Part shown: positions 514 to 18,471 of the stretch, piece after piece
Position numbering within the stretch: position 1 is the stretch's first letter
Layout: each line of letters starts with the position of its first letter
NCBI GenBank assembly: GCA_964560525.1
Contig: CAZLLO010000002.1
Span: 18,221 to 82,220 of the forward strand
Direction of reading: 5' to 3'
DNA length: 64,000 nucleotides
DNA from: an uncultured Candidatus Saccharibacteria bacterium
Lineage (GTDB): Bacteria; Patescibacteriota; Dojkabacteria; SC72
Program-made: the position numbers and the translations under genes
Notes under the pieces: generated by a model
Database searches by the model: none
What the model saw: the letters and a program-made list of their open reading frames with translations, nothing else
Told to the model about the DNA's origin: nothing

Positions 514-1569
514 ATGAAACTTTTTGATTCAATCTGGGAACTTCTAACATATGATTTGGGAATAGACTTGGGTACTGCGAATACCATGGTATACATGCGT
601 AATCATGGTATCGTAGTTTCAGAACCATCTGTTGTGGCGATAGATAAGCGAACGAAAACTGTACTTGCGGTTGGTAAAGAAGCAAGGCAGATGATTGGTA
701 GAACACCTGCCAATATCGCTGCAGTTAGACCTCTTAAAGATGGTGTGATTTCTGACTTTGATACTACTCAGGCAATGATTCATCATTTCATACACAGAGC
801 ACATTCATATTTTGGAAACTCGTTTAAGCTTCCAAGGCCAAGGGTCATAATAGGTGTTCCTTCTTCTGTTACCGAGGTCGAAAGACAAGCGGTAATTGAT
901 GCTGCTAAAACTGCGGGGGCAAGAGAAGTCTTCATTGTTGAAGAATCGATGGCTGCTGCCATAGGGGCAGGATTACCTGTTGAAGATGCCTCGGGAAGTA
1001 TGATTGTAGATGTAGGAGGTGGTACTTCCGATATTGCAGTCTTTTCTCTGGGAGATATTGTGGTTGATAATACCCTAAGGATTGCGGGAGATGAAATGGA
1101 TCAAGATGTAGTGAACTATGTAAGAGAAAAATACAATGTATTAATAGGGGAGAGAAGTGCAGAAGACGTAAAGATAGCTATTGGTTCTGCTATGCCACTA
1201 AAGAAAGAAACTAAGATGGCTGTACAAGGAAGAGATCTTTTAACAGGTTTACCAAAAACAGTAGAGCTAAGTAGTGTAGAGGTGAGAGAAGCCATAATGA
1301 CCTCGATATACCAGATAACAGAAGCAGTTAAAGATGCCATCGAAGATACTCCTCCAGAGCTTCTTAAAGACCTTCTCACATCAGGATTACATCTAACGGG
1401 CGGTGGAGCGTTGATTAAGGGTTTGGATGCATACTGGACCTCTGAACTTAATTTACCTGTCAAAATAGTAGATGATCCACTCTCTGCAGTAGCAAGAGGA
1501 ACTGCACTGATGCTAGACCACATTGAGCTCCTAGAGAGAGTACAAAGGTCTTGGAATGAGTTAGTTTAA
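514..1569 (+). CDS. mreB: Rod shape-determining actin homolog MreB
   Basis: DLGIDLGTANT phosphate-1 motif, DVGGGTSDIA phosphate-2 motif, and full-length similarity to MreB/Mbl. Confidence 0.95.
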   Translation: MKLFDSIWELLTYDLGIDLGTANTMVYMRNHGIVVSEPSVVAIDKRTKTVLAVGKEARQMIGRTPANIAAVRPLKDGVISDFDTTQAMIHHFIHRAHSYFGNSFKLPRPRVIIGVPSSVTEVERQAVIDAAKTAGAREVFIVEESMAAAIGAGLPVEDASGSMIVDVGGGTSDIAVFSLGDIVVDNTLRIAGDEMDQDVVNYVREKYNVLIGERSAEDVKIAIGSAMPLKKETKMAVQGRDLLTGLPKTVELSSVEVREAIMTSIYQITEAVKDAIEDTPPELLKDLLTSGLHLTGGGALIKGLDAYWTSELNLPVKIVDDPLSAVARGTALMLDHIELLERVQRSWNELV

Positions 1570-1582
1570 ATACACTCAATAT

Positions 1583-2398
1583 ATGAAACAGGAGAATAGC
1601 CAATATTTTGGGAAAGATAACAATTTCATATATATATCCTTAGCGGTAGGTATACTTTGCTTAATCCTAAGCAGTGTTAGTAACCTAAATCCATTGAGAA
1701 ATGCTATGTCCTATGTCTTTGAGCCAATAACTAAAGGGGCAAATGTTGCAGGTAGCAATACAAGAGAATATTTCTCTACTTTCATACAGCTTGGCAAATT
1801 CAGAAAAGAATACAATCAAATGAAAGCAGAGCTGTATACTAAAGAGGCAGAATATTCTAAATATTTAGTATTAAAAAGTGAAAACGATGCATTGAAGCAA
1901 CAGCTTGAAGTGTCAAGTATTGATGGATCATTTGTAATGGCTAATGTCTTGCGTGATGATGATGTGAATTCCATCTTAATCGATGAAGGGAGCAAATCAG
2001 AGATCACCCAGGGAGATGTTGTTACTTTAGGTAATGCTTTTGTAGGTATAGTTACAAATGTAGATGCGAAAGGTAGTAGGGTAAGGCTTGCAACAGACAG
2101 CAATTCCCATCTTGAAGTTGTAATAATGAAACCTGGGGAGGAGAGTAGGAAGAATATCTCTAGTAGGGGTGTAGCTGTAGGTTCTGTAGAGGGTATAAGG
2201 ATAGAAAATATAGCCATGAACTCTAATGCTGCCAACGGAGATGTCGTGTATGTTAATGATTCTAAAATTGGAGGTTTTTGGACACTGGGCTATCTAGTAG
2301 GTTTGTCTGAAAACCCTGCCAGTACTTACAAGACAGCATTTGTTTCTACCGTTTTAGACTATGACGACTTAACTAAAGTATTTGTTAAACTCAACTAA
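1583..2398 (+). CDS. mreC: Rod shape-determining protein MreC
   Basis: Directly after mreB. N-terminal TM helix, coiled-coil region, then beta-rich domain (GDVVxT...GGxxxxG...). Position and architecture fit MreC. Confidence 0.6.
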   Translation: MKQENSQYFGKDNNFIYISLAVGILCLILSSVSNLNPLRNAMSYVFEPITKGANVAGSNTREYFSTFIQLGKFRKEYNQMKAELYTKEAEYSKYLVLKSENDALKQQLEVSSIDGSFVMANVLRDDDVNSILIDEGSKSEITQGDVVTLGNAFVGIVTNVDAKGSRVRLATDSNSHLEVVIMKPGEESRKNISSRGVAVGSVEGIRIENIAMNSNAANGDVVYVNDSKIGGFWTLGYLVGLSENPASTYKTAFVSTVLDYDDLTKVFVKLN

Positions 2399-2894
2399 TA
2401 TGGGAATTCTGTATACATTAATTGCAATATTTGGAGTGGTTTTCTTAGAAAGCTTCCTTGTTGCACTTTGTGATCTCAGAATCCTTTTCTTAGTCTCTGT
2501 TGTGGCCTTTAAGAAAATCAATTGGAGATACTTGTGTATAGCGATAGCTATTTCATCTATTGTTTTAGATGTGGTGTATCACTATGTTTTGGGTACTAAT
2601 CTGATTCTAATAGCCATTCCCATGCTATTGCTTCTTCTATTCTCGCTATTTGTTCCTCTAGGGCAGAGTCTTCCAGGGTATGCAGTTAAGCTAGGGATAT
2701 TTGTGTTTTACAACGTTTTACTTGTTACGGTTCCCAACTTTCTTCTTGAGGGTGTGTTTGGACAGCTTAGTTGGGCGATTCTTTTAGGAATTCTTGTAAA
2801 GTCATGCGTTTCTGTATTACTGTGCTTTGTAGCTGATTTAGTTTGGGACAGATTTAGAAAGAAAGAAGATGGTACAAAATTAAGATTAAAATAG
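2382..2894 (+). CDS. mreD: Polytopic membrane protein, probable MreD
   Basis: A 170-aa protein with 4-5 TM helices, located between mreC and PBP2 in the conserved mreBCD-mrdA order. Confidence 0.45.
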   Translation: MLNSTNMGILYTLIAIFGVVFLESFLVALCDLRILFLVSVVAFKKINWRYLCIAIAISSIVLDVVYHYVLGTNLILIAIPMLLLLLFSLFVPLGQSLPGYAVKLGIFVFYNVLLVTVPNFLLEGVFGQLSWAILLGILVKSCVSVLLCFVADLVWDRFRKKEDGTKLRLK

Positions 2895-2901
2895 TAAGGG
2901 T

Positions 2902-4908
2902 ATGGATTTGAAGTTCTCGAAACAATTAGATGTTACTCCTAAGAAGATACTTAAAGCTGTAAGTAAGCCAAAGATAGGTGATATTAAGAAGAGAGCGAAA
3001 GATCTTTTTATGCGGACTACAGACTCAGTAAAGGCTTCTCCATGGAACTATCTTTTGGCATTCTTCCTCTTCTTTTTAATTTTTGGTGTCTTAATATGGC
3101 AATTAGCAAGGCTTCAGATAGTGGAGGGGGAAGAGATGCTAGCTAAGTCGGAGAATAATCAAATTAGGCTAGAGAGTACAGCTGCATATCGAGGGGTTAT
3201 CTTTGATAGAAATGGGGTGAAATTAGTAGAGAATATTACCTCTTCGAATTTGTATCTATCGATAGAACCATATGAGAGTGTAAGGGGTAAATTAGACGAA
3301 TCAAAACTAGGGGAGGTTTCCAATACCCTCAGGGGTATACTAGGAGACAGCTGGAACAAGACATCTAAGGATGGTTCTGCAACATATTCCTCCATTATGG
3401 AAAGAGTGCAAAAGATATATGAAGAGAGTCCATACTTTACAGCTATATTAATTGCTAGTGATTTGAGTAATGATACCGTTATAAAAATAAAAGCACAGTT
3501 TGAATCTCTACCAGGTGCATATATAGATGATGGAAGTAAGCGAGAATATCCATTTAAGGATTCAATCTCAGCTGTTTTGGGATACACAGGAGAAGTGACA
3601 GCTGAGGATTTAGATGTTTTTGACTATGTAAGTGCTACAGATATCGTAGGAAGATCTGGCTTAGAGCGAAAGTACGATGAAATACTTGCAGGTGAGGATG
3701 GAAAGGTTGCGTGGGAAGTAGATAGCCAAGGTAGAAAGATTTCAGATGAAGGGCTGGTTGTATCAGAGCCTGTCTCAGGGCAGAATATGTATCTAACTAT
3801 AGATATGGATGTACAAAAGAAGATGTACGAACTACTTGCTGCGGGGGTAAAGAATGTAGATGCTACAGGTGGTGCTGGAATTATTGAAGATGTTAATACA
3901 GGCGAGATCATAGCTATGGTTACGTATCCTAGCTATGACAACAATCTTTTTACAGGAGGAATATCTGCTAAGGACTATGCTAAGTTAGTTAAGAATACAG
4001 CCAATCCATTACTGAACAGAGCAGTAGGGGCACAGATACCACCAGGTTCAACCTTTAAAACCATTGTCTCTGTTGGTGCATTAGATACTGGTGCCGTAAC
4101 GAGAAATACAAAGTACGTAAGTACATCAAGTTACAAATTCTCCAATGGTGCATCATTTCAAGAGTATATGAATCACTCATATGGTACTTTGAACCTCATA
4201 GATGCTCTTTCGGTGTCATCTAACGTTTTCTTTTGTGAAGTCATAAGGCACTGGGATATGAATGCGTTGGTACCATATATGGAGAAATTTGGTATAGGGA
4301 AGCTTACGGGTATTGATATTCCTGGAGAAGGTGCAGGAAGACTTCCATCTCCTGCGAACAAGCTTTTGTTAGCTACTACCAGTAGTCCATGGTTAGATCC
4401 TATCTGGTATCCAGAAGGGGATTCATGTAACTCAGTTATTGGGCAGGGTATCACGCTTGCAACTCCCATACAGATGGTCAATTGGGTCTCTGCCATAGCT
4501 AACGAGGGTACCTTGTACAAACCCCATATTGCTAAATATTTTGTAGATGAAAATGGAAACAAAACAGAGGTTCTAGCTGAAGTTTTGCAAAGCAACATTG
4601 CAGGCAAAGAGGCATTTGATATCACGAAAGAGGGAATGTGGTCTGTAGTTAATGGCAGCCGTGCTTTCATCCCGATGCTTGGAAATCTAGGTGTAGAAGT
4701 TGCTGCAAAGACAGGAACCGCAGAATTTGGAGCCTTAAACAAAAAGGGACAGTATGAGCATACGCACGCTTGGACCACGGGTTTTTTCCCATATGACAAA
4801 CCTAAATATGCATTTGTATTGTTCTTAGAAGATGGTGGTTTAAGTCTTAATGCTACGAAGATTGCTAAGGAGATGATTAGTTGGATGGTCAAAGAAGGAA
4901 AGATTTAA
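2902..4908 (+). CDS. mrdA: Penicillin-binding protein 2 (peptidoglycan D,D-transpeptidase)
   Basis: N-terminal TM anchor; transpeptidase motifs STFK (SxxK), SSN (SVSSNVFF), KTGTA (KTG); PBP dimerisation domain. Confidence 0.9.
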   Translation: MDLKFSKQLDVTPKKILKAVSKPKIGDIKKRAKDLFMRTTDSVKASPWNYLLAFFLFFLIFGVLIWQLARLQIVEGEEMLAKSENNQIRLESTAAYRGVIFDRNGVKLVENITSSNLYLSIEPYESVRGKLDESKLGEVSNTLRGILGDSWNKTSKDGSATYSSIMERVQKIYEESPYFTAILIASDLSNDTVIKIKAQFESLPGAYIDDGSKREYPFKDSISAVLGYTGEVTAEDLDVFDYVSATDIVGRSGLERKYDEILAGEDGKVAWEVDSQGRKISDEGLVVSEPVSGQNMYLTIDMDVQKKMYELLAAGVKNVDATGGAGIIEDVNTGEIIAMVTYPSYDNNLFTGGISAKDYAKLVKNTANPLLNRAVGAQIPPGSTFKTIVSVGALDTGAVTRNTKYVSTSSYKFSNGASFQEYMNHSYGTLNLIDALSVSSNVFFCEVIRHWDMNALVPYMEKFGIGKLTGIDIPGEGAGRLPSPANKLLLATTSSPWLDPIWYPEGDSCNSVIGQGITLATPIQMVNWVSAIANEGTLYKPHIAKYFVDENGNKTEVLAEVLQSNIAGKEAFDITKEGMWSVVNGSRAFIPMLGNLGVEVAAKTGTAEFGALNKKGQYEHTHAWTTGFFPYDKPKYAFVLFLEDGGLSLNATKIAKEMISWMVKEGKI

Positions 4909-4942: not shown

Positions 4943-5614
4943 ATGGTAAGTATTTCAATTTCAGAAAATAGATATCCGTCTCTTCTTAAGGAAATATATG
5001 ATCCTCCTAAATGTCTGTATACAAAAGGAAATGTTCAGCTTCTTGGTAAACGTTGTATCTCAATTGTCGGTAGCAGGAATGCAACGAGCTATTCAAAATG
5101 GATAGTTGAAAATCTTTTAGATGAGAAGCTATTGAAATTAGATTTTTGTATTGTGAGTGGCTTGGCAAGAGGGGTGGATACATTGGTACATAGAAGATGC
5201 CTAGAGTTAGGAATTCCAACGATAGCAGTAATTGCAGGAGGTATTGAGAATATATATCCATTAAGCAATACTTCGTTGTATTACGAAATCGCAAACAAAG
5301 GGCTATTAATTGCTGAATATGAGGGTATGGCTCCAATGAAAAAAGGTATGTTCCCAAGAAGGAACAGGATTTTGGCTGGAATATCAGAGGCAACGATTGT
5401 AGTAGAGGCAGATATCAAAAGTGGATCACTTTTAACAGCCAGTTATGCGTTGGAGAGTAACAGGGATGTGTATGCGATACCTGGATATATTAACAAAAAT
5501 ACGTCACATGGTTGTAACACACTAATTAAACAGGGAGCACAAGTCATAACTTCAAAAGAGGACTTCGAACAGATCTTAGGAATTGAACAGGACCAGCTAA
5601 GAATGAGTATTTAA
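4943..5614 (+). CDS. dprA: DNA processing protein DprA (Smf), short form
   Basis: IVGSRNAT...GLARGVDTLVHR...GMFPRRNRILAGIS...DIKSGSL...AIPG is the DprA Rossmann-like domain signature. Confidence 0.85.
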   Translation: MVSISISENRYPSLLKEIYDPPKCLYTKGNVQLLGKRCISIVGSRNATSYSKWIVENLLDEKLLKLDFCIVSGLARGVDTLVHRRCLELGIPTIAVIAGGIENIYPLSNTSLYYEIANKGLLIAEYEGMAPMKKGMFPRRNRILAGISEATIVVEADIKSGSLLTASYALESNRDVYAIPGYINKNTSHGCNTLIKQGAQVITSKEDFEQILGIEQDQLRMSI

Positions 5615-7907: not shown

Positions 7908-8540
7908 ATGCTTCCAAGAGAAAAATATTTAGAAAGGGGTATAGATAGCCTCAGTGATATGGAGTTAATAGCCATAATTATTGGTTCTGGTATTAAGGGT
8001 CATGATTTTATGTCCGTTTCCAGATCTGTGGTATATCAAATACGAAAATCTATAAAGAAGAATGGGAATGTAGATATTAAGGATATTGTTGATATTCTTG
8101 GTATTGGTTTAGCTACAGCTATGAAGATTCTCTCTGGTATTGAATTGGGTAGGAGGTTGTATGACCTAGGTAACAAGGAGAAGATTTCTGTTAGAAATGC
8201 ACAAGAGGCTTACTATTTGTTAAAGGATATGCGAAACAAGAAACAGGAATATATTGTGGGATTGTTTCTTAATTCTAGATTTGAGTTACTAGAACAACGT
8301 ACATTGGCTATTGGTACAGTGGATGGGGCTGGGTTACTTCCGAGGGATGTTATTATTCCTGCATTAGAACTTAATGCTAGTTCTGTTATTATGGCACATA
8401 ACCATCCTTCTGGGGATTCTTTACCTAGTAATGAGGATATTGATGTTACACAGAGGGTAGGGAAAGCGTTAGATTTAGTAGGGATTAAACTACTAGATCA
8501 TATGGTTATAGGGAAGGATGATTGGAAAAGTATTTGTTAA
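7908..8540 (+). CDS. radC: RadC-family JAB/MPN domain protein
   Basis: N-terminal HhH-like region and C-terminal JAMM motif HNHPSGDSLPSNED. Confidence 0.85.
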   Translation: MLPREKYLERGIDSLSDMELIAIIIGSGIKGHDFMSVSRSVVYQIRKSIKKNGNVDIKDIVDILGIGLATAMKILSGIELGRRLYDLGNKEKISVRNAQEAYYLLKDMRNKKQEYIVGLFLNSRFELLEQRTLAIGTVDGAGLLPRDVIIPALELNASSVIMAHNHPSGDSLPSNEDIDVTQRVGKALDLVGIKLLDHMVIGKDDWKSIC

Positions 8541-8937
8541 GCGTATCTACCTTCATTTTGATTTTGTTAAAAATAGTTTCTACAGCAAAATCGAAAGGTA
8601 TAAAAACATCTTGGATATTCCAGATTTCATAATTTTTACCATTGTATCCCAGGGTTTTAGTGCAATACAGAAATTGCTTCTTGGTCATGAATATTATCAA
8701 ATCCTGTTCATCGAGGATCTCTTTTGTAGTTAAAGTCCAAATCTTGGAGGCATATTTCAATAGATCATTTTTAAGAAGAATCTTTTCTGTATATCTACAT
8801 ATTGGACCATCTAAATTTCTTGAAGCTTCAATACCACTTGAACTTACGTTGTTCCCTTTAACATCTTTTGATATTAAATATGCTTCTGCTAAACGACTTC
8901 TGAATGTATTCCCATTACAAACGAAATGAATTTTCAT
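8506..8937 (-). CDS. Low-molecular-weight protein tyrosine phosphatase / ArsC-like
   Basis: N-terminal P-loop VCNGNTFRS (C-x5-R-S) of LMW-PTPs, in a 143-aa protein. Its 3' end overlaps radC convergently by about 35 nt. Confidence 0.7.
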   Translation of the reverse strand: MKIHFVCNGNTFRSRLAEAYLISKDVKGNNVSSSGIEASRNLDGPICRYTEKILLKNDLLKYASKIWTLTTKEILDEQDLIIFMTKKQFLYCTKTLGYNGKNYEIWNIQDVFIPFDFAVETIFNKIKMKVDTLNKYFSNHPSL

Positions 8938-8961
8938 AAATATACTTTACTACACAATTAG

Positions 8962-9303
8962 ATGATTGGAAAAGTATATTATGATAAACTTGATATAGTA
9001 ATGCCAAAGAAATTTGAAAGAAAAATAGAAGACTTTGAATGTGAAAACTGTCATACAAAAGTAAAAGGAAATGGATATACAGACCATTGTCCCAATTGCT
9101 TGTACTCCAAACACGTAGATATTAATCCAGGAGATAGAAAATCTCCTTGTAAGGGCTCAATGATACCAATAGCAGTAGAAGTTAAAAGAGATGGTTACAA
9201 AATACATTACAAATGTAAGAAATGTGGATATATACATAGAGTTAAGTCAGTACAAGAGGATAACTTTGATAGAATATTGGAATTAGTAAAGAAGCCATTT
9301 TAA
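8962..9303 (+). CDS. RNHCP-like zinc-ribbon protein
   Basis: Two Cys pairs (CENCH...DHCPNC and CKKCGY) and a TDHCPNC motif resembling the RNHCP domain signature. This is a 113-aa protein at the start of the AT-rich island. Confidence 0.35.
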   Translation: MIGKVYYDKLDIVMPKKFERKIEDFECENCHTKVKGNGYTDHCPNCLYSKHVDINPGDRKSPCKGSMIPIAVEVKRDGYKIHYKCKKCGYIHRVKSVQEDNFDRILELVKKPF

Positions 9304-9368
9304 AAGTATTTACAGTGACGTAGAGTGCTGTTATAATTTGATGCAATAAGTTAATTATTGCACCCAAA

Positions 9369-10178
9369 TTGATTCTCTCCCTCAAAAAAAATATTTCAGA
9401 ACCCGGTTGGGAATACTTGTATAACCCTCATGTACTTTCTGTTTTTGCAGAATATATGAAAGATCCTACATCAATATCTTTATGGGGTATTACAGGAGAT
9501 TTAGATAATTTAGGTGTTTTTGTTGCGGAAAATGGTAGAGCAAAAGCAGAGAATTTAGTAGATTTATACAATCAGGTAACTAGGAATTATATTAGCAATT
9601 GGTATCGTGAAAACACTAACGATGTACAAGCAGTCTGTTTTCTACCTTGTGGTGAAGAAGTTTTAATTCTTGGAACGACAAAAAATACAAATGTTGTTAC
9701 AAAACTTTTTTCCGAAATCAAAGCAGCAATAAAAGAAAAGATTAATGAATATGATTTCATTGAAGTTGGTGGTACAGGTGCAAGTTTTGGATGCTCAATT
9801 TTGCAAGAAAATTCTACGGATACTCTGATATCTCAGTTGATAAAGGATTATAAAAAAACCAGTGATGACGAGATTATCTACCCACAATATTTAAAAATAA
9901 TTGAACGAATACGAACAATATTAGCGATAGAACTAGATAAGTCCAAATTTAATGATATCTTAGATGGCCAGTATCCAATTCAGATGAGGCAACTTGTATT
10001 ATCGAGAATGTTGTTATACAAATTATCTACGAAGGAACTCATTGCTTCGATGAACAAGTTTGATCCAGAGTGTTTGAAATTAATCTTGAATAGTTTGGGA
10101 GAATCATATGGAATGAATTATGAGAAATCCGCATTTATAGATAACCTTTTGAAAGAAAATGAATCAAATAAAAAATAG
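9369..10178 (+). CDS. Standalone divergent GGDEF-like (palm-domain) nucleotidyl cyclase
   Basis: GDLDNLGVFVAENGRAKAENLV matches the GGDEF block DxDxFKxxNDxxGHxxGDxxL. It is followed about 50 aa later by a PCGEEV (GGEEF-like) motif, then ILGTTKN...KLFSEIKAAIKEKI...EVGGTGAS, matching the post-GGDEF helix and loop. There is no sensory or TM domain; the alpha-helical C-terminal region is about 120 aa. Confidence 0.55.
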   Translation: MILSLKKNISEPGWEYLYNPHVLSVFAEYMKDPTSISLWGITGDLDNLGVFVAENGRAKAENLVDLYNQVTRNYISNWYRENTNDVQAVCFLPCGEEVLILGTTKNTNVVTKLFSEIKAAIKEKINEYDFIEVGGTGASFGCSILQENSTDTLISQLIKDYKKTSDDEIIYPQYLKIIERIRTILAIELDKSKFNDILDGQYPIQMRQLVLSRMLLYKLSTKELIASMNKFDPECLKLILNSLGESYGMNYEKSAFIDNLLKENESNKK

Positions 10179-10767
10179 ACAGACAATTCTGATAGGTGGT
10201 GGCCAGGTTTGGAAAAATGAGACTGTTCCAATAGACGAATATATTGTAAAGCTGGCCAAAGAAGATACCCAATCACCCCAATTATTATTGATTCCAACAT
10301 CATCCAATGACAGAGAAGATTACATACAGGCTGTTAAAAAGATTTATGAATCCTTAGGTTGTGAAGTGAATGTGCTAAGGTTCTTACATAATAAATATAC
10401 AAAGGAAAATGTTAGGGCAGAAATACAAAATTCTTCGATAATATATTTAGGATCTGGAGATCCAGCTATCCTCGAGAATGTATTGTCAGGAATGGATTTA
10501 AAGGAAACCTTTTTAGAGTGCCTTAACAAGTATTCAAAAATATTAGTTGGTTCAAGTGCAGGAGCTGCACTATTGTCGGAAAACTATATTGATGTCCTTT
10601 CCGATGATTTGAAACTCCAGAAAGGTTGGGGAATTATACCCCAAATAACCGTTGTACCGCATTATTCTGATAAGCTAAACATGGGAGATGAGGGCTTCCT
10701 TTTGCTTAGAGATTTGGAGATAGCACATTTTGATTTAGATAAACTTTGTAGAAAAATTCAATTTTAG
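10159..10767 (+). CDS. Peptidase S51 family (dipeptidase E / cyanophycinase-like)
   Basis: IIYLGSGDPAIL and the nucleophile elbow VGSSAGAALLSE (GxSAG) match PepE. The start overlaps the upstream gene by 20 nt. Confidence 0.7.
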   Translation: MNQIKNRQTILIGGGQVWKNETVPIDEYIVKLAKEDTQSPQLLLIPTSSNDREDYIQAVKKIYESLGCEVNVLRFLHNKYTKENVRAEIQNSSIIYLGSGDPAILENVLSGMDLKETFLECLNKYSKILVGSSAGAALLSENYIDVLSDDLKLQKGWGIIPQITVVPHYSDKLNMGDEGFLLLRDLEIAHFDLDKLCRKIQF

Positions 10768-10768
10768 A

Positions 10769-11842
10769 GTGATAGACAAATCAGAATCGATAAAAAGTGG
10801 ATCTGAGGTTTCTATTGTTAATCCAGTATCTGTCCAGCCAGAGAGATTTCATGCGAATGCAGAAGTTACAGATTATCTTGAAAATATAGGTTTCAAAGTA
10901 ACAGATTATACAGCTCTACAGGGGGACGATTTTGAGAGAGTTGATAGGTTTAATTCTGCGGTTGCTTCTGGGGCAAAGGCTTTATTCCCTGTCACAGGAA
11001 ATAACTTTGGAGAAAATCTGATAGATAAAATTGATTACGAAAAAATAAAGGAGTTGAAACCAATGTTTACAACATTTAGTGCAGCTTCTACCTTTCAATT
11101 AGCAATACAATCTCAGTCAGAGCTGGAAACATTTTATGGCCCACACATCTCCTTTATTCAATCTAAATCTAGCTATCGTGAGAATTCATATACGGTTACC
11201 TCATATTTAAATATGCTTTGTGGGACATCTGCAAGGTGGGGATTACAAGGAAAACTCTCTGGCCTTGCGTTTAGGAATAGGTTGGAAAGTGAGGGAACAG
11301 TTATGAGAAATATAATATCTAGAATAGACACTTTAGGTGATATATACAAAGGTGAACCGATACCATTTATAGGAAAAACAGAAGCATCTCAAATGTTTGT
11401 AACGGGGAAACTACTTCCAACTTTTTTGCAGGGTTTGGATGTTGCTGGAAAACTTGGAATAGAGCTAGACTTAAATAATAATATACTCCTTGTTGAATCA
11501 AATGATACCTCGTATGAGAAGGCGTTAGAGCATATGAAATCTATTAATGAAACATATGATTTGTCAAAACTTTCTGCAATCGTCTTAGCCTCTTTTATTC
11601 ATAGAAAGACGTCAGAAAAAGATTTTGGATATTCACTTTACGATAAAACCAGAGCATCAATCTTTGTTAGAGAAGTAGAGAAGATTGTAAAAAACAATAT
11701 TCCTGTCCTGTACGGTTTTCCAATTGGTCATGGAAGGTATAAATTAACCGTGCCAATAGGTATCAATGCAAAATTAGATCTTGCAACAGGCGATTTATAT
11801 TTAACAGAATCACCATATAAAGATGTCAAAAAATCAAATTAA
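10769..11842 (+). CDS. Peptidase S66 family (LD-carboxypeptidase LdcA / MccF-like)
   Basis: KPMFTTFSAASTF...ETFYGPHI aligns to the S66 nucleophile block nPKIfxGYSDiTaL...TfhGP with the Ser retained. The C-terminus YGFPIGHGRYKLTVPIGINAKLD matches the GFPxGH...LPxG...LD block with the catalytic His. The start is GTG. Confidence 0.65.
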   Translation: MIDKSESIKSGSEVSIVNPVSVQPERFHANAEVTDYLENIGFKVTDYTALQGDDFERVDRFNSAVASGAKALFPVTGNNFGENLIDKIDYEKIKELKPMFTTFSAASTFQLAIQSQSELETFYGPHISFIQSKSSYRENSYTVTSYLNMLCGTSARWGLQGKLSGLAFRNRLESEGTVMRNIISRIDTLGDIYKGEPIPFIGKTEASQMFVTGKLLPTFLQGLDVAGKLGIELDLNNNILLVESNDTSYEKALEHMKSINETYDLSKLSAIVLASFIHRKTSEKDFGYSLYDKTRASIFVREVEKIVKNNIPVLYGFPIGHGRYKLTVPIGINAKLDLATGDLYLTESPYKDVKKSN

Positions 11843-12884
11843 AGGAATTTCTCCTTATGACAATGTCGCTTTAGTTACACCAGGGGATTTATTACCACCG
11901 ATGTACAAAGAACAGAAAACAAATATAAAAAATTATCTTAAAAAGATAGGTTATACATGTAAAGACTTGACGAATTGTTATGGAGAAGATGCGGTAATTC
12001 AGAGGGCGAATAATTTGAATAATGCGTTCGAGGATAAAAGCATAAAAGCGGTATTTCCGATTTGTGGAGGTGAACGTTCAGATGAAATTGTAGATTTTTT
12101 AGATTACAGCTTAATATCTCAAAATCCAAAGATTTTTTGTGGATATGCAGGATTATCATATTTACTTAATAAAATAGCTTTTAATGCAAGGATAACAACT
12201 TTCTATGGGCCTCATTTAAATTTAATAAATGATGGAGCTACAAAAAGAGAAACCAATTTTACTATTTGGAACTATTGGAAATTGTTTTCGAATGAAGAAT
12301 ATAAAGAGGATTTAGATTTTAATGTGAATGAAAATGAATATAAAATGGAAAGCAGTCTTAATGGGTTGAAAACTATCAAATATAAAAATATTTTTGCATC
12401 GGAAATATATTCAAAAAGTAGTCCTGATAATTATTTCTTCTATAATAAAAATGCCAAGGGAAAATATTTAGAAGGAACTTCGGTTGTAACCTCTCTTAAT
12501 TCATTAGAAAAGGTTTGCTCAATGTTAATAGAGAATAGAATCGAGGATTTTCTTCTATTTGTTGATTTCTTTGATACGGGTGAAAAGGATATATTAAAAG
12601 TTTTTAAGAAGATATCAAAAGTCTTAATGTTGCAGCATTGTAGTGGGATAATAATTACAAATTTAACGACACACGGAGATTTCAATATGGATCATTTTTA
12701 CACTAGAGAAGAAATTAAAAGCATAGTTGATGATATCTCCGTTTTATTCCAAGAAAAACTAAGCATCCTTTATGGTTTTCCAGTAGGGCATAGTAAATAT
12801 AAATTTGTAGTGCCAATCAATTGGAAAGTTAAAGTTAATTGTGTAAATGGGGATATAACTTTTGCAAATCCTTTTAAAATATGA
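11823..12884 (+). CDS. Peptidase S66 family paralog, predicted nucleophile Ser replaced by Ala
   Basis: NPKIFCGYAGLSYLL...TTFYGPHL aligns to PKIfxGYSDiTaL with Ser to Ala and Asp to Gly. The C-terminal YGFPVGHSKYKFVVPI block is retained. The gene overlaps the upstream S66 gene by 20 nt. Confidence 0.6.
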   Translation: MSKNQIKGISPYDNVALVTPGDLLPPMYKEQKTNIKNYLKKIGYTCKDLTNCYGEDAVIQRANNLNNAFEDKSIKAVFPICGGERSDEIVDFLDYSLISQNPKIFCGYAGLSYLLNKIAFNARITTFYGPHLNLINDGATKRETNFTIWNYWKLFSNEEYKEDLDFNVNENEYKMESSLNGLKTIKYKNIFASEIYSKSSPDNYFFYNKNAKGKYLEGTSVVTSLNSLEKVCSMLIENRIEDFLLFVDFFDTGEKDILKVFKKISKVLMLQHCSGIIITNLTTHGDFNMDHFYTREEIKSIVDDISVLFQEKLSILYGFPVGHSKYKFVVPINWKVKVNCVNGDITFANPFKI

Positions 12885-13546
12885 AAATTCTATGTAAAAG
12901 AGAAGAGATGGAAATTCTGAAAAAGAGGGGAGTGCACAGTCTTGTTCACTTCACTCCGTTATCCAATCTTCAGAGAATTCTTGTTGAAGGACTTAAACCC
13001 TTAAACTCTGCAGGAGAAGAGTTAGTATGTGCAAATCAGAGTACGCGAATCCAAGCAGATGGAGATTTAATAAGCTTCTCAATAGAATATCCTGGTTACA
13101 TGTACCTTCAAAGTCTTATAAAAAAGTGTGGGGAAATATTTGTAATACTGTATTATCCAATCGAACTTCTTGCAGGCAAGAAAGTTTTCATATATAAAAG
13201 CAATCCGGCTATTCCTCGTTGGGGAGAAGCAGAAACTTTTGAGGATTTGTTTTTCGAAGAATTTAGATATAAGAAATTACCCTCCTATTACCCAAGTGAT
13301 CCAAGAGCCGAGATTCGTATGCAGGGATGTATCAATAGTTCTCAAATTCAAAAAATTGTGTTTCCTTCTGTGTTGAAGGAAGACATTCCCCAAATTCAAT
13401 CTCTTTTTCCCGATATAAAAATTTTAATAGATGACAATGTATTTGAACCAAGAATAGATTCCGATTACTGGACGAGTATCCGTACCCAGGGTTTAGATAT
13501 TTGCCCTTTAATATCGGAGACTTGTCCTTCGAAGGCGGTTTCATAA
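12881..13546 (+). CDS. DUF4433 / DarT-like ADP-ribosyltransferase-fold protein
   Basis: The N-terminal LVHFTPLSNLQRILVEGLKP matches the DarT/DUF4433 signature (hyHfTxxxNLxsILxxGL). The protein is about 220 aa, as DarT is. The 4-nt ATGA start overlaps the upstream gene. No adjacent macrodomain (DarG) gene. Confidence 0.55.
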   Translation: MKILCKREEMEILKKRGVHSLVHFTPLSNLQRILVEGLKPLNSAGEELVCANQSTRIQADGDLISFSIEYPGYMYLQSLIKKCGEIFVILYYPIELLAGKKVFIYKSNPAIPRWGEAETFEDLFFEEFRYKKLPSYYPSDPRAEIRMQGCINSSQIQKIVFPSVLKEDIPQIQSLFPDIKILIDDNVFEPRIDSDYWTSIRTQGLDICPLISETCPSKAVS

Positions 13547-13674
13547 AACCTTGCATAACCGTTATTAAATATGTATAATCCATCTGTTATTTAATCTCAT
13601 ATATCCCTGTAATTTTCCTGGATGATATATAAATATCACCCACCAGAGATATTAATAAAAGGAAAGATATAAAA

Positions 13675-14805
13675 ATGGAAAAAACAAAAGAAGTCTTAAC
13701 AGAGACAAAGACTCAAAACAAAGTCTCTAACGTAAAACTCCCAGAAATAATAGATCTACTAAAAGCAGGCTGTCATTTTGGACACAAGAAAAGTGCTTGG
13801 AATCCAAGAATGAAACAGTACATATATGAAGAGAGAAATGGTATTCATATCATCGACTTAGTAAAAACTCAAGAACTCATAAAGACAACCGTAGATGCAT
13901 TAGCAAACCTCTCTGACAAAGGAAACATCCTCATCGTTGGTACAAAAGGACAAGCAGCATCAATAGTTGAAAAAGTAGCAACCGAAAACGGTGCTTTCTA
14001 TGTAAACAAAAGATGGCCAGGTGGACTCTTCACAAACTTTGAAGTAGTAAGAAGAAGTATTCTTTCTTTAACAAAAATGGAAGAGAGTTTAGCAAAAGGT
14101 GGAGAAGATTTGGTTAAAAAAGAAGAACTATTAATGCAAAGAGAAGTTGTAAAATTGGAAAGAATCTACAAAGGTATTAAGTTCATGGATAAACTTCCAG
14201 AAGCAGTAATCATCGTAGATACAAAAGTTGAGAAATTAGCAATCAAAGAAGCAAGAATTGCAGGTATTCCAATCATAGGATTAGTAGATACAAACTGTAA
14301 TCCAGATTTAGTAGACTACCCAATCCCAGCAAATGATGACTCTCTAAAGAGTATCTCATTGCTCTTGGATATCTTAGGAAAAGTAGTTGGCGAATCTAAG
14401 AGATCTCAATCAATCATAGCTTTGAGAAATAGCCAGAAAGCAACCTTAGAACTTCTAAATAGACAGTTCTTGGAGCAAAAGGAAAGACAAGCTAAGATGG
14501 AAGCAGAAGACAGAGAAAGAATGAAGGCATTAAGAGAAGGAAAAGTAGCTGAGTCTAAGGGAACTGTAGTAAGAGTTGTTAAAAAAGATATCAGTGCAGA
14601 AATAGAAGCAGCAGAAGAAGCAAAAAAGATCTCTGATTCTAAGAGCATTGAAGACCTAGGACTTTCTGCAAGAATAGTAAAAGCACTTGAAGAGAACAAC
14701 ATTAAAAATGTAAGTGATCTCTCAGGTAAAACAAAAGAAGATTTAATGGAAATTAAAGGAGTAGGAGAGAAAGCTGCTTTGGATATTTTGAAATCTCTTA
14801 AATAA
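13675..14805 (+). CDS. rpsB: 30S ribosomal protein S2 with C-terminal (HhH)2-like extension
   Basis: S2 core (LLKAGCHFGHKKSAWNPRM...IHIIDL...). It is extended to 376 aa with a coiled-coil linker and a C-terminal IEDLGLSARIVKALEENNIKNVSDLSGKTKEDLMEIKGVGEKAALDIL resembling the RNAP alpha-CTD helix-hairpin-helix. Confidence 0.9.
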   Translation: MEKTKEVLTETKTQNKVSNVKLPEIIDLLKAGCHFGHKKSAWNPRMKQYIYEERNGIHIIDLVKTQELIKTTVDALANLSDKGNILIVGTKGQAASIVEKVATENGAFYVNKRWPGGLFTNFEVVRRSILSLTKMEESLAKGGEDLVKKEELLMQREVVKLERIYKGIKFMDKLPEAVIIVDTKVEKLAIKEARIAGIPIIGLVDTNCNPDLVDYPIPANDDSLKSISLLLDILGKVVGESKRSQSIIALRNSQKATLELLNRQFLEQKERQAKMEAEDRERMKALREGKVAESKGTVVRVVKKDISAEIEAAEEAKKISDSKSIEDLGLSARIVKALEENNIKNVSDLSGKTKEDLMEIKGVGEKAALDILKSLK

Positions 14806-17346: not shown

Positions 17347-18471
17347 ATGAGAATGAATCTGTCCAAGAAAAAGAAGATTATTGTATCCGCTATATTTTTT
17401 ACAGTATTAGCTGGTACTGGTGGGTATTTACTTTGGAGAGTAAATAATAGAGAAACATTAGCAGAGGTTCCAGGATTAGCTTCCAATTGTTATGCTAGGT
17501 GTAAAAGAACAAGCGGTGATGACCCAGGTCATATCATAGATGCAGCTTGTACCGACCCTGAAAGATGTGCAGGATATACAAATGAAAACGGTGGACAATC
17601 TTTGTGTGAATATGAGACAGTATGTGATGCAGAACCAGCAGAAGTCTGTGGTAATGGTACTTGTGTAAGCGGAGTTGAGAATGTAACCAGTTGTCCTGCA
17701 GATTGCTCCGTATGTGGTGATAATCTATGTACAGGTACAGGCGCTGAAAATTTGACTACATGCCCAGGAGATTGTTCAGTATGTGGTGATAACAAATGTA
17801 CTGGTCCTGAGACATTAGCTACATGTCCAGGAGATTGTTCTGTATGTGGAGATAACAAATGTACAGGAAGTGAAACCGCTGCAACATGTGCTTCTGATTG
17901 TGTATGTAAAGATCTTACTTGGACAAATAAACCAAGTGGAAAATATAATCCTTCGAGAGAATTCCCTACAATTACAGTAACCAATACCAACAGTAAAAGC
18001 ACAACTAGTACAGGTACCACGATTAAACTTAACGATGTGGCTGTCGGAGCATGCTCTACCGCAAACACAGAAACCTGTTATAGTCTTAGTAATAACACAG
18101 ACGGTTTTCAAGTAGTATCAATAACCCTGTTTAAGGGTGTCAACGCAATAAAGGTAGGAACATACGCGTTAGCTATAGAGCTACCCGTTGATACAGGGTT
18201 GTGTGCACAGGATTCTGTAAATACATCAACATCATTTACCATTGAAGCCAATGCTGTAGTCGTTGTTCCTGAAACAGGAATATTAGATGGTGTGATGGGA
18301 AAAGTATATATAGGTACAGTATTTGTCTTCTTAGGGGTTATGACAACTCAATATCCAAAGATTAACTATGCTGTCCATATTCTGGGAGAGAAAAATAAAA
18401 TAGTATCCGACGAAAAGCGAAAGAAGAGAGAAGAAAGTAGAAGAAATAGATTCGAAAAAAGATTCAAATAA
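17347..18471 (+). CDS. Cys-rich tandem-repeat cell-surface protein
   Basis: N-terminal TM/signal; three tandem copies of CPxDCSVCGDNxCTGxE; Thr-rich linker; C-terminal TM helix plus a basic tail (KRKKREESRRNRFEKRFK). Confidence 0.5.
   Translation: MRMNLSKKKKIIVSAIFFTVLAGTGGYLLWRVNNRETLAEVPGLASNCYARCKRTSGDDPGHIIDAACTDPERCAGYTNENGGQSLCEYETVCDAEPAEVCGNGTCVSGVENVTSCPADCSVCGDNLCTGTGAENLTTCPGDCSVCGDNKCTGPETLATCPGDCSVCGDNKCTGSETAATCASDCVCKDLTWTNKPSGKYNPSREFPTITVTNTNSKSTTSTGTTIKLNDVAVGACSTANTETCYSLSNNTDGFQVVSITLFKGVNAIKVGTYALAIELPVDTGLCAQDSVNTSTSFTIEANAVVVVPETGILDGVMGKVYIGTVFVFLGVMTTQYPKINYAVHILGEKNKIVSDEKRKKREESRRNRFEKRFK
17690..17900 (+). repeat. Three tandem, nearly identical DNA repeats of about 60 nt encoding the CPGDCSVCGDNKCTG modules
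   Basis: tgcccaggagattgttcagtatgtggtgataacaaatgtac... repeated with few substitutions. This explains the spurious antisense ORFs 17529..18068 and 17815..18111. Confidence 0.6.

Follow-up and report, generated by a model that had tools for sequence, protein, structure and literature searches.

Why should a bacterium keep, beside a peptidase of the S66 family whose catalytic residues look complete, a second S66 protein from which the catalytic serine has gone? This question is raised by two neighbouring genes in a 64,000-nucleotide (nt) stretch of DNA from an uncultured Candidatus Saccharibacteria bacterium (contig CAZLLO010000002.1 of assembly GCA_964560525.1, forward-strand positions 18,221-82,220), here called the window; positions given below count from its first letter, and (+) denotes its forward strand. 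The first gene (10769..11842, +) starts with GTG and encodes an MccF/LdcA-family peptidase of 357 amino acids (aa), here S66A; the second (11823..12884, +) encodes a predicted pseudo-peptidase of 353 aa, here S66B. They are the third and fourth genes of a five-gene operon, in the order palm-domain enzyme, S51 peptidase, S66A, S66B and DarT1-like ADP-ribosyltransferase. An earlier note on this DNA, made from the letters alone, had predicted that S66B is catalytically inactive. The comparisons described here uphold that prediction at the level of sequence, and we consider it probable that S66B is not a serine hydrolase and yet is functional.

Both proteins belong to the S66 family, which is represented in Pfam by PF02016 (N-terminal domain) and PF17676 (C-terminal domain). 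Peptidase_S66 and Peptidase_S66C matched S66A with E-values of 2.8e-10 and 8.8e-12 and S66B with 8.7e-20 and 1.1e-08, all above the gathering scores, and in both proteins a long insertion lies between the two domains. In pairwise HMMER alignments, Ser104 of S66A falls on Ser111 of Lmo1638 (4h1h), the elbow of which reads G-F-S111-D-I-T and carries Ala in the S111A mutant (4inj). The S66A elbow, T-F-S104-A-A-S (codons at nt 11072-11089, +), is not the canonical G-x-S-D-x-T; as had been noticed previously, Gly and Asp are lost and Ser is retained, so that the required nucleophile is present. S66B places G-Y-A109-G-L-S (codons at 12141..12158, +) on the same elbow, in multiple as well as pairwise alignments, with Ala in the column of the Ser of canonical GYSD[IT]T. 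The Ala109 codon, GCA (12147-12149), is one base from TCA, and no other Ser encoded by 11823..12884 aligns to the nucleophile position. The catalytic His is kept in both proteins within the C-terminal GFPxGH block that the note had recognized, as H321 in S66A and H323 in S66B. For the catalytic Glu, the first E of L-F-x-E-x-x-E, the column was set by spacing: Ser115/Glu242/His312 of P0039 matches Ser116/Glu243/His313 of Ba3275, the residues named in PDB titles. This column holds E243 in S66A and Asp248 in S66B, a second change that had been overlooked when the Ser-to-Ala change was correctly read. Since nearly all of the wider lineage of S66B also has Asp here and otherwise keeps Ser and His, Asp may be a workable substitute for Glu. 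The Ser104-Glu243-His321 triad of S66A is complete in sequence, and this protein is presumed to be a working hydrolase; S66B has Ala109, Asp248 and His323 at the corresponding positions.

Ala109 is not an artefact of assembly or sequencing, because identical proteins are found on independent Logan assemblies (L005, L006) and because the L038 orthologue (P0002), 82% identical to S66B, uses the same GCA codon. Full-length orthologues of S66B were found at 82, 46, 45, 44 and 38% identity. The nucleophile position is Ala in the window protein and P0002 (G-Y-A-G-L-S), Gly in the three distant orthologues P0003, P0004 and P0005 (the B-type protein of L001; G-Y-G-S-L-S) and Ser in P0006, and the flanking G, Y, L and S of G-Y-x-x-L-S are unchanged while this position is Ala or Gly. 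The frame of S66B is intact in five genomes. By the Nei-Gojobori method, the ratio of nonsynonymous to synonymous substitution rates (dN/dS) between window and L038 orthologues is 0.04 for the palm gene, 0.18 for S51, 0.06 for S66A, 0.145 for S66B and 0.095 for the DarT-like gene; S66B is thus less constrained than S66A but clearly under purifying selection. An AlphaFold (AF2) model of S66B had a mean predicted local distance difference test (pLDDT) score of 89 and a predicted template-modelling score (pTM) of 0.91. Foldseek ranked MccF structures best for this model (B. anthracis MccF, E ~2e-21; TM scores of 0.70-0.74), with LdcA at ~1e-14, and its superposition on structures of MccF and LdcA gives TM scores of 0.65-0.79. 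The nucleophile has been lost while the fold is intact and selection purifying, which argues that S66B is a pseudo-enzyme rather than a pseudogene. The suggestion in the note that it serves as a binding or regulatory partner fits this degree of selection better than decay does.

We compared the palm-linked S66 proteins with canonical ones in a neighbour-joining tree and a motif table. The palm-linked proteins form one group apart from the canonical GYSD[IT]T/E/H proteins and are split into two lineages. In lineage A, present in 8 loci, the TFSAAS elbow is invariant and both Glu and His are kept; lineage B combines the elbow G-[YSF]-S-x-[LI]-S with His and with Asp, the latter being Glu in a single sequence. 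Window S66A is 37% identical to the A-type proteins of other loci and 25% identical to S66B, which indicates that the tandem pair consists of juxtaposed old paralogues. A recent tandem duplication is ruled out by the 25% identity and by the fact that each protein is closer to its orthologues in other phyla-level lineages; the genes are neighbouring paralogues, as previously described, but they represent ancient lineages brought together and not a local duplication. When a B-lineage protein is the sole S66 protein of its locus, Ser is kept without exception (16/16; 15 in the tree plus L040), whereas the five tandem-B sequences that share an operon with S66A have Ala or Gly. This pattern of sequences fits subfunctionalisation, although the five form a single clade, so that it represents one or two events and not a statistical association. 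S66A occurs without S66B in at least 6 loci (L007-L009 and L016-L018). At L020 9989-12247 and L016 3255-4407, the palm gene is split and S66A is truncated or split, owing to decay or to assembly frameshifts.

The pair lies in the MccF-like branch of the family. A profile of 24 palm-linked S66 proteins matched BA_5613 at 1.7e-33, Lmo1638 at 3.6e-29, Ba3275 at 7.9e-29 and MccF at ~1e-27, and matched LdcA at 5.9e-11 (E. coli) and 4.7e-07 (P. aeruginosa); the Foldseek ranking with the S66B model agrees in placing the MccF clade above LdcA. Placement within orthodox LdcA clades, with synteny to murein-recycling genes, was therefore found for neither protein, and no murein-recycling gene was a conserved neighbour across the ~30 loci inspected. 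LdcA, the LD-carboxypeptidase of murein tetrapeptides (P. aeruginosa 1ZRS, E. coli 5Z01), shares the MEROPS/Pfam family and the fold, but its sequence similarity is much weaker and its motifs are different. With MccF, a self-immunity peptidase against microcin C, and its relatives (E. coli 3TLA, B. anthracis 3GJZ; BA_5613, Ba3275 and Lmo1638), the best matches by both profile and structure, the window proteins share the two-domain S66 fold, the Ser-His-Glu triad in S66A and neighbours that are nucleotide-handling enzymes rather than cell-wall genes. They differ from these in the elbows (TFSAAS and GYAGLS), in the missing Ser and the Asp for Glu of S66B, in the long inter-domain insertion, the region of which is also that of the adenine-stacking Trp loop of E. 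coli MccF (W186), and in the lack, in the window operon, of an mcc cluster (MccA precursor, ThiF-like MccB and exporter); L007 and L008 are the only loci with ThiF close to the cassette. Among characterised MccF homologues, many stand alone themselves (PMC8323819), and the missing cluster is thus compatible with MccF-like chemistry. MccF (S66) and MccG (S51) both hydrolyse the aminoacyl-nucleotide carboxamide bond of processed microcin C (PMC9239234, PMC8323819). The link that had been drawn between MccF and the nearby nucleotidyltransferase is strengthened by the MccF-like profile and model, by the S51 gene of the MccG family and by the palm enzyme in the operon; the nucleotidyltransferase, described as adjacent, does belong to the same operon, but the S51 gene lies between it and the S66 genes.

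The five genes are tightly packed. The palm gene occupies 9369..10178 (+), the S51 gene 10159..10767 (+) and the DarT1-like gene 12881..13546 (+), and adjoining genes overlap or abut at every boundary: the overlap is 20 nt between the palm and S51 genes, another 20 nt between S66A and S66B, and 4 nt (ATGA) between S66B and the DarT-like gene. Directly 5' of the palm gene lies a promoter-like site (9309..9337, +; TTTACA, a 17-nt spacer and TATAAT, with an upstream TG), the top match in a scan of 8400-13800 at 11/12 positions; the scan total was no higher than in shuffled sequences, so that only the position and quality of this site are suggestive. The cassette of five genes recurs in L001 (a 308-kb contig; 44-62% protein identity) and in L038, with entirely different flanks. 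An RNHCP-domain zinc-ribbon gene lies directly upstream of the operon (8962-9303, +), and RNHCP genes also occur ~7-8 kb or less from the palm/S66 loci of L004 and L034. We set this gene aside as an operon member, since the strong promoter-like site intervenes and the gene is absent from L001.

The first gene encodes a 269-aa protein with a GGDEF/Cas10-like palm domain and a C-terminal helical bundle, a putative nucleotidyltransferase or cyclase. It had no match in Pfam (mCpol included), NCBIfam or PADLOC, and neither Pfam nor NCBIfam gave a GGDEF match at E <= 0.1. Its motifs are T-G-D44-L-D46-N-L-G and P-C-G95-E-E-V, and D44, D46 and G95-E96-E97 are the same in all 41 sequences compared. The top PDB matches of its AF2 model (pLDDT 91) in Foldseek were GGDEF domains and Cas10/Csm1 palm domains, with probabilities of ~1 but weak E-values near 1e-3. 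The family comprises 55 clusters, none of them named; a set of 1.84 billion proteins contains only 91 of its representatives, and these do not grade into ordinary GGDEFs. Its hosts are members of the candidate phyla radiation (CPR; Daviesbacteria, Microgenomates, Saccharibacteria, Kaiser-, Uhr- and Paceibacterota) and gut 'Alphaproteobacteria' metagenome-assembled genomes. The palm fold and the D-x-D ... G-E-E layout are shared with GGDEF cyclases, Cas10 and mCpol (Panoptes); by contrast, the present family is sharply separate, and its partners are peptidases rather than CARF, SAVED or transmembrane effectors or phosphodiesterases.

The second gene encodes a peptidase of the PepE/cyanophycinase/MccG family (Pfam Peptidase_S51, 5.4e-22) that keeps Ser133, in G-S-S-A-G-A, and His168, aligns to the cyanophycinase-like exopeptidase 6nqc and scores under the NCBIfam cut-offs for cyanophycinase and PepE. 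Two proteins, P0120 (488 aa) and P0159 (425 aa), are fusions of the palm and S51 domains and constitute a Rosetta-stone link between the first two genes of the operon. Such coupling of an S51 peptidase to a palm enzyme has not been described for MccG, which is of the same family and with which the catalytic Ser and His are shared. As a fusion of a synthase and a hydrolase, the palm-S51 proteins resemble GGDEF-EAL proteins. Degenerate GGDEF/EAL receptors, in which a catalytically dead hydrolase serves as a binder, offer an analogy to S66B.

The last gene, which overlaps the stop codon of S66B and was missed in the earlier description of the locus, encodes a 221-aa protein without a direct Pfam match. 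A profile of its family matched E. coli C7 DarT1 (8baq) over nearly the full length at an E-value of 3.9e-23, and 6 of 8 family members match Pfam DarT. The residues essential in E. coli C7 DarT1, F18, R52, M71, N104 and E152 (PMC11543638), align with F24, R56, M74, N108 and E144, all kept in the window protein. A search of metagenome contigs with the DarT-like profile gave zero matches. The known partners of DarT are macrodomain (DarG) and NADAR proteins (PMC11543638). No macrodomain or NADAR protein was found with Pfam and NCBIfam among the five operon proteins or the two upstream genes, nor in L001, L011, L013 or L040. Instead, a B-lineage S66 gene lies directly upstream of the DarT-like gene, or one gene away, in all five known locus types (window/L038, L001, L011/12, L013 and L040-42). 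The arrangement resembles the DarTG1/DarTG2 systems of toxin-antitoxin action and phage defence in having a DarT1-type ADP-ribosyltransferase with its essential residues and a tightly coupled upstream partner gene. It differs in that the partner has the S66 fold and is not a macrodomain or NADAR protein, and in that the pair sits in a larger operon with the palm and S51 genes; the label of toxin is a prediction.

The wider neighbourhood of the palm gene was surveyed in 30 distinct loci annotated with hidden Markov models from our own alignments. S66 is adjacent in 27/30 loci and S51 present in 18/30; an S-adenosylmethionine (SAM)-dependent methyltransferase occurs in about 8 loci and a DarT-like gene in 5 locus types. 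PADLOC matches among the neighbours in L001, L008 and L011 were limited to an SspD-like gene and, weakly, QatA, so that the case for a defence-island context is weak. In gut metagenomes, the cassette lies beside genes of conjugative or mobile elements, for a TraG-like ATPase, an rve integrase, an SspD-like 3'-phosphoadenosine 5'-phosphosulfate (PAPS) reductase and a CHAP-like cell-wall hydrolase (L011 1-5670, L040 1-1221), which suggests that the gut-type cassettes are carried on integrative elements. Genes for tRNA lie directly upstream of the cassette in L001 (Asp-GTC, 5137-5213) and L013 (Val-AAC, 2296-2372, an anticodon unusual in bacteria); both were confirmed with Rfam, and tRNA genes abutting the cassette fit the insertion of mobile islands at such genes. 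A 38-aa open reading frame (ORF) upstream of the L013 S66 gene, considered as a precursor peptide, is actually this tRNA-Val gene read as protein, and an ARAGORN 'tRNA-???' call in L004 was unsupported by Rfam. Interleaved with the DarT-like and palm genes of the gut-type operons are two conserved proteins that match no family, one of ~311 aa with a weak P-loop signal (L011 7684-8619, L013 4797-5741) and one of ~233 aa with an N-terminal CxxC (L011 9351-10052, L013 6456-7154).

Other genes recur near the palm and S66 genes. A leucyl-tRNA synthetase (LeuRS) gene lies in or beside the locus in L004 (4950-7385), L007 (3229-5604, reverse strand), L011 (10049-12469) and L013 (7168-8514), and overlaps the preceding operon gene in L011 and L013. 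In the window, the candidate LeuRS ORFs of 798 aa and 792 aa proved to be Mfd-like and a GT2 glycosyltransferase. Upstream of a LeuRS-S66-methyltransferase-palm run in L004 is an 841-aa fusion of a Pol-beta-type nucleotidyltransferase and a pyridoxal-phosphate (PLP)-dependent decarboxylase (1463-3988), followed by a radical-SAM gene, an arrangement reminiscent of MccE/MccD-type tailoring. Genes of the kinds associated with peptide handling or with ribosomally synthesized and post-translationally modified peptides were seen near palm/S66 genes in L007 (10809-13149), L008 (1953-3862), L032 (2119-3030) and L035 (11802-12728), and include ThiF and YcaO, an M29 aminopeptidase and proline-iminopeptidase-like proteins. 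Further along the window, a gene at 17347-18471 (+) encodes a predicted protein of 374 aa in which an N-terminal hydrophobic segment is followed by three tandem Cys-rich repeats (T-C-P-G-D-C-S-V-C-G-D-N-K-C-T-G).

What, then, might S66B do? We propose that the operon is a merger of two modules, one consisting of the palm enzyme, S51 and S66A and the other of S66B and the DarT-like protein. Hydrolysis would be carried out by S66A (and S51), and by analogy with MccF and MccG the substrate would probably be an amide of the aminoacyl- or peptidyl-nucleotide type, which the palm enzyme would help to make or modify. S66B would have been reduced to binding, its likeliest target being the co-translated DarT-like toxin, for which it could serve as a regulatory or antitoxin-like subunit, substituting for the absent DarG or NADAR protein; alternatively, or in addition, it may bind the nucleotide-containing ligand that its active relatives cleave. 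The partnership of S66B with DarT is proposed on the grounds of gene coupling and lineage linkage, and the model as a whole, with S66A and S51 as hydrolases and S66B as a non-catalytic binder, most likely of the toxin, is one that we hold tentatively, at somewhat less than an even chance.

Several observations weigh against this model, besides the derivation of the serine losses from one or two events. His323 and Asp248 have persisted in S66B through long divergence, perhaps a sign of residual chemistry rather than of binding. The target of the DarT-like protein might be a small molecule and not DNA, in which case no antitoxin would be needed, and we know of no way for S66 hydrolases to reverse or block ADP-ribosylation. 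Most loci with S66A have neither S66B nor DarT, so that the two modules may be mere neighbours. In addition, a PADLOC scan of all cassette proteins gave zero matches, and zero copies were found when viral contigs were searched with the DarT-like and palm profiles.

The alternative that survives best is an obligate S66A:S66B heterodimer with S66B as its inactive half; there S66B would shape or regulate the active site of S66A and have no particular connection with DarT. S66 enzymes such as MccF and LdcA are dimers in their structures, and PDB entries of the family have two or more chains; moreover, the 20-nt overlap joins the S66A and S66B genes, the two are co-conserved in the window, L038 and L001, and every locus in which the nucleophile has been lost contains S66A as well. 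However, S66A does without S66B in the six or more loci mentioned above, and the genes most closely related to S66B stand as the single S66 gene of their locus and are coupled with DarT-like genes, not with S66A. We regard an obligate heterodimer as unlikely, although it is compatible with S66B being a binder of the toxin.

We consider it rather unlikely that the operon is instead an immunity, resistance or biosynthesis set for an aminoacyl-nucleotide 'Trojan-horse' inhibitor of an aminoacyl-tRNA synthetase (aaRS), with S51 and S66A as detoxifying enzymes, S66B as a sponge or decoy and the linked LeuRS as resistant targets. Cleavage of processed microcin C has been shown for two peptidase families, and these are S51 and S66 (PMC9239234); the S66 branch is MccF-like, and aaRS genes that serve as immunity copies are known, agnB2 being one (PMC8323819). 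In L004, L007, L011/12 and L013 a LeuRS gene is found at a distance of 5 kb or less; it is translationally coupled in L011 and L013, and may be a resistant target copy for a mimic of leucyl adenylate (Leu-AMP). Some loci also have a methyltransferase, ThiF/YcaO, the PLP-decarboxylase fusion, NTP_transf_5, a PP-binding protein or an ATP-binding cassette (ABC) exporter. In the window operon, on the other hand, we found no LeuRS, exporter, ThiF/MccB or precursor peptide, and neither a GGDEF-like palm enzyme nor a DarT-type ADP-ribosyltransferase has a known precedent in such pathways.

It is improbable, in our estimation, that S66B remains a hydrolase by means of another nucleophile, either Ser112 at the +3 position or a water molecule activated by His323 and Asp248. 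Although overall identity in the tandem-B clade is 44%, those two residues do not vary within it; Ser112 is almost constant across the whole branch, and the L001-type orthologues have a Ser one position past the lost nucleophile (G-Y-G-S-L-S). A Ser or Thr at +3 is, however, also found in all canonical S66 proteins that contain the nucleophilic Ser, and is thus not a replacement for it; the variation of the nucleophile position between Ala and Gly is as expected once a residue is unused, and according to PDB descriptions Ser-to-Ala S66 proteins are the standard inactive mutants of crystallography. Finally, that both ORFs encode ordinary cell-wall LdcA paralogues for murein tetrapeptide recycling, with S66B in decay, is very improbable: the orthologues are annotated by JGI as 'muramoyltetrapeptide carboxypeptidase LdcA' and both ORFs give weak matches to the NCBIfam LdcA equivalog model, but these are far under its cut-off, genuine E. 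coli and P. aeruginosa LdcA score 1e-11/1e-7 against 1e-33 to 1e-27 for the MccF clade, conserved murein-recycling genes are lacking around the ~30 loci, the nucleophile motifs are non-canonical, and S66B is under purifying selection with an intact frame.

Full-text literature searches retrieved no account of an S66 paralogue lacking the nucleophile or of an S66 pseudo-enzyme, of an association of palm proteins with S66 or S51, or of DarT paired with an S66-fold protein or with anything but a macrodomain or NADAR. The S66 pair may thus be a new variant within a known family, and the surrounding cassette, which is apparently undescribed, may be a new system. If S66B is only a silent partner of S66A, the pair would be a modest case of subfunctionalisation in a peptidase family. 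If S66B is indeed the binder of the DarT-like toxin in an operon of the kind proposed here, it would be a third kind of DarT partner, and the cassette would offer the first functional handle on a sharply delimited and unannotated GGDEF/Cas10-like family. The theme of aminoacyl-nucleotide hydrolases known from MccF and MccG would then be extended to CPR bacteria and to mobile elements of the gut, and the recurrent linkage to LeuRS would hint at an aaRS-directed compound. A more elaborate reading, which we put forward as a doubtful one, is that the product of the palm enzyme is a new signal or toxin containing a nucleotide, perhaps an aminoacyl- or peptidyl-nucleotide, that S51 and S66A turn this product over, and that S66B is a receptor restraining a DarT1-like DNA ADP-ribosyltransferase. 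Were this the case, the palm-S51 fusions would be the counterpart of GGDEF-EAL proteins, and with this cassette CPR and gut bacteria would possess a novel toxin or defence system based on nucleotide signalling, a pseudo-peptidase of MccF fold taking the place of DarG or NADAR.

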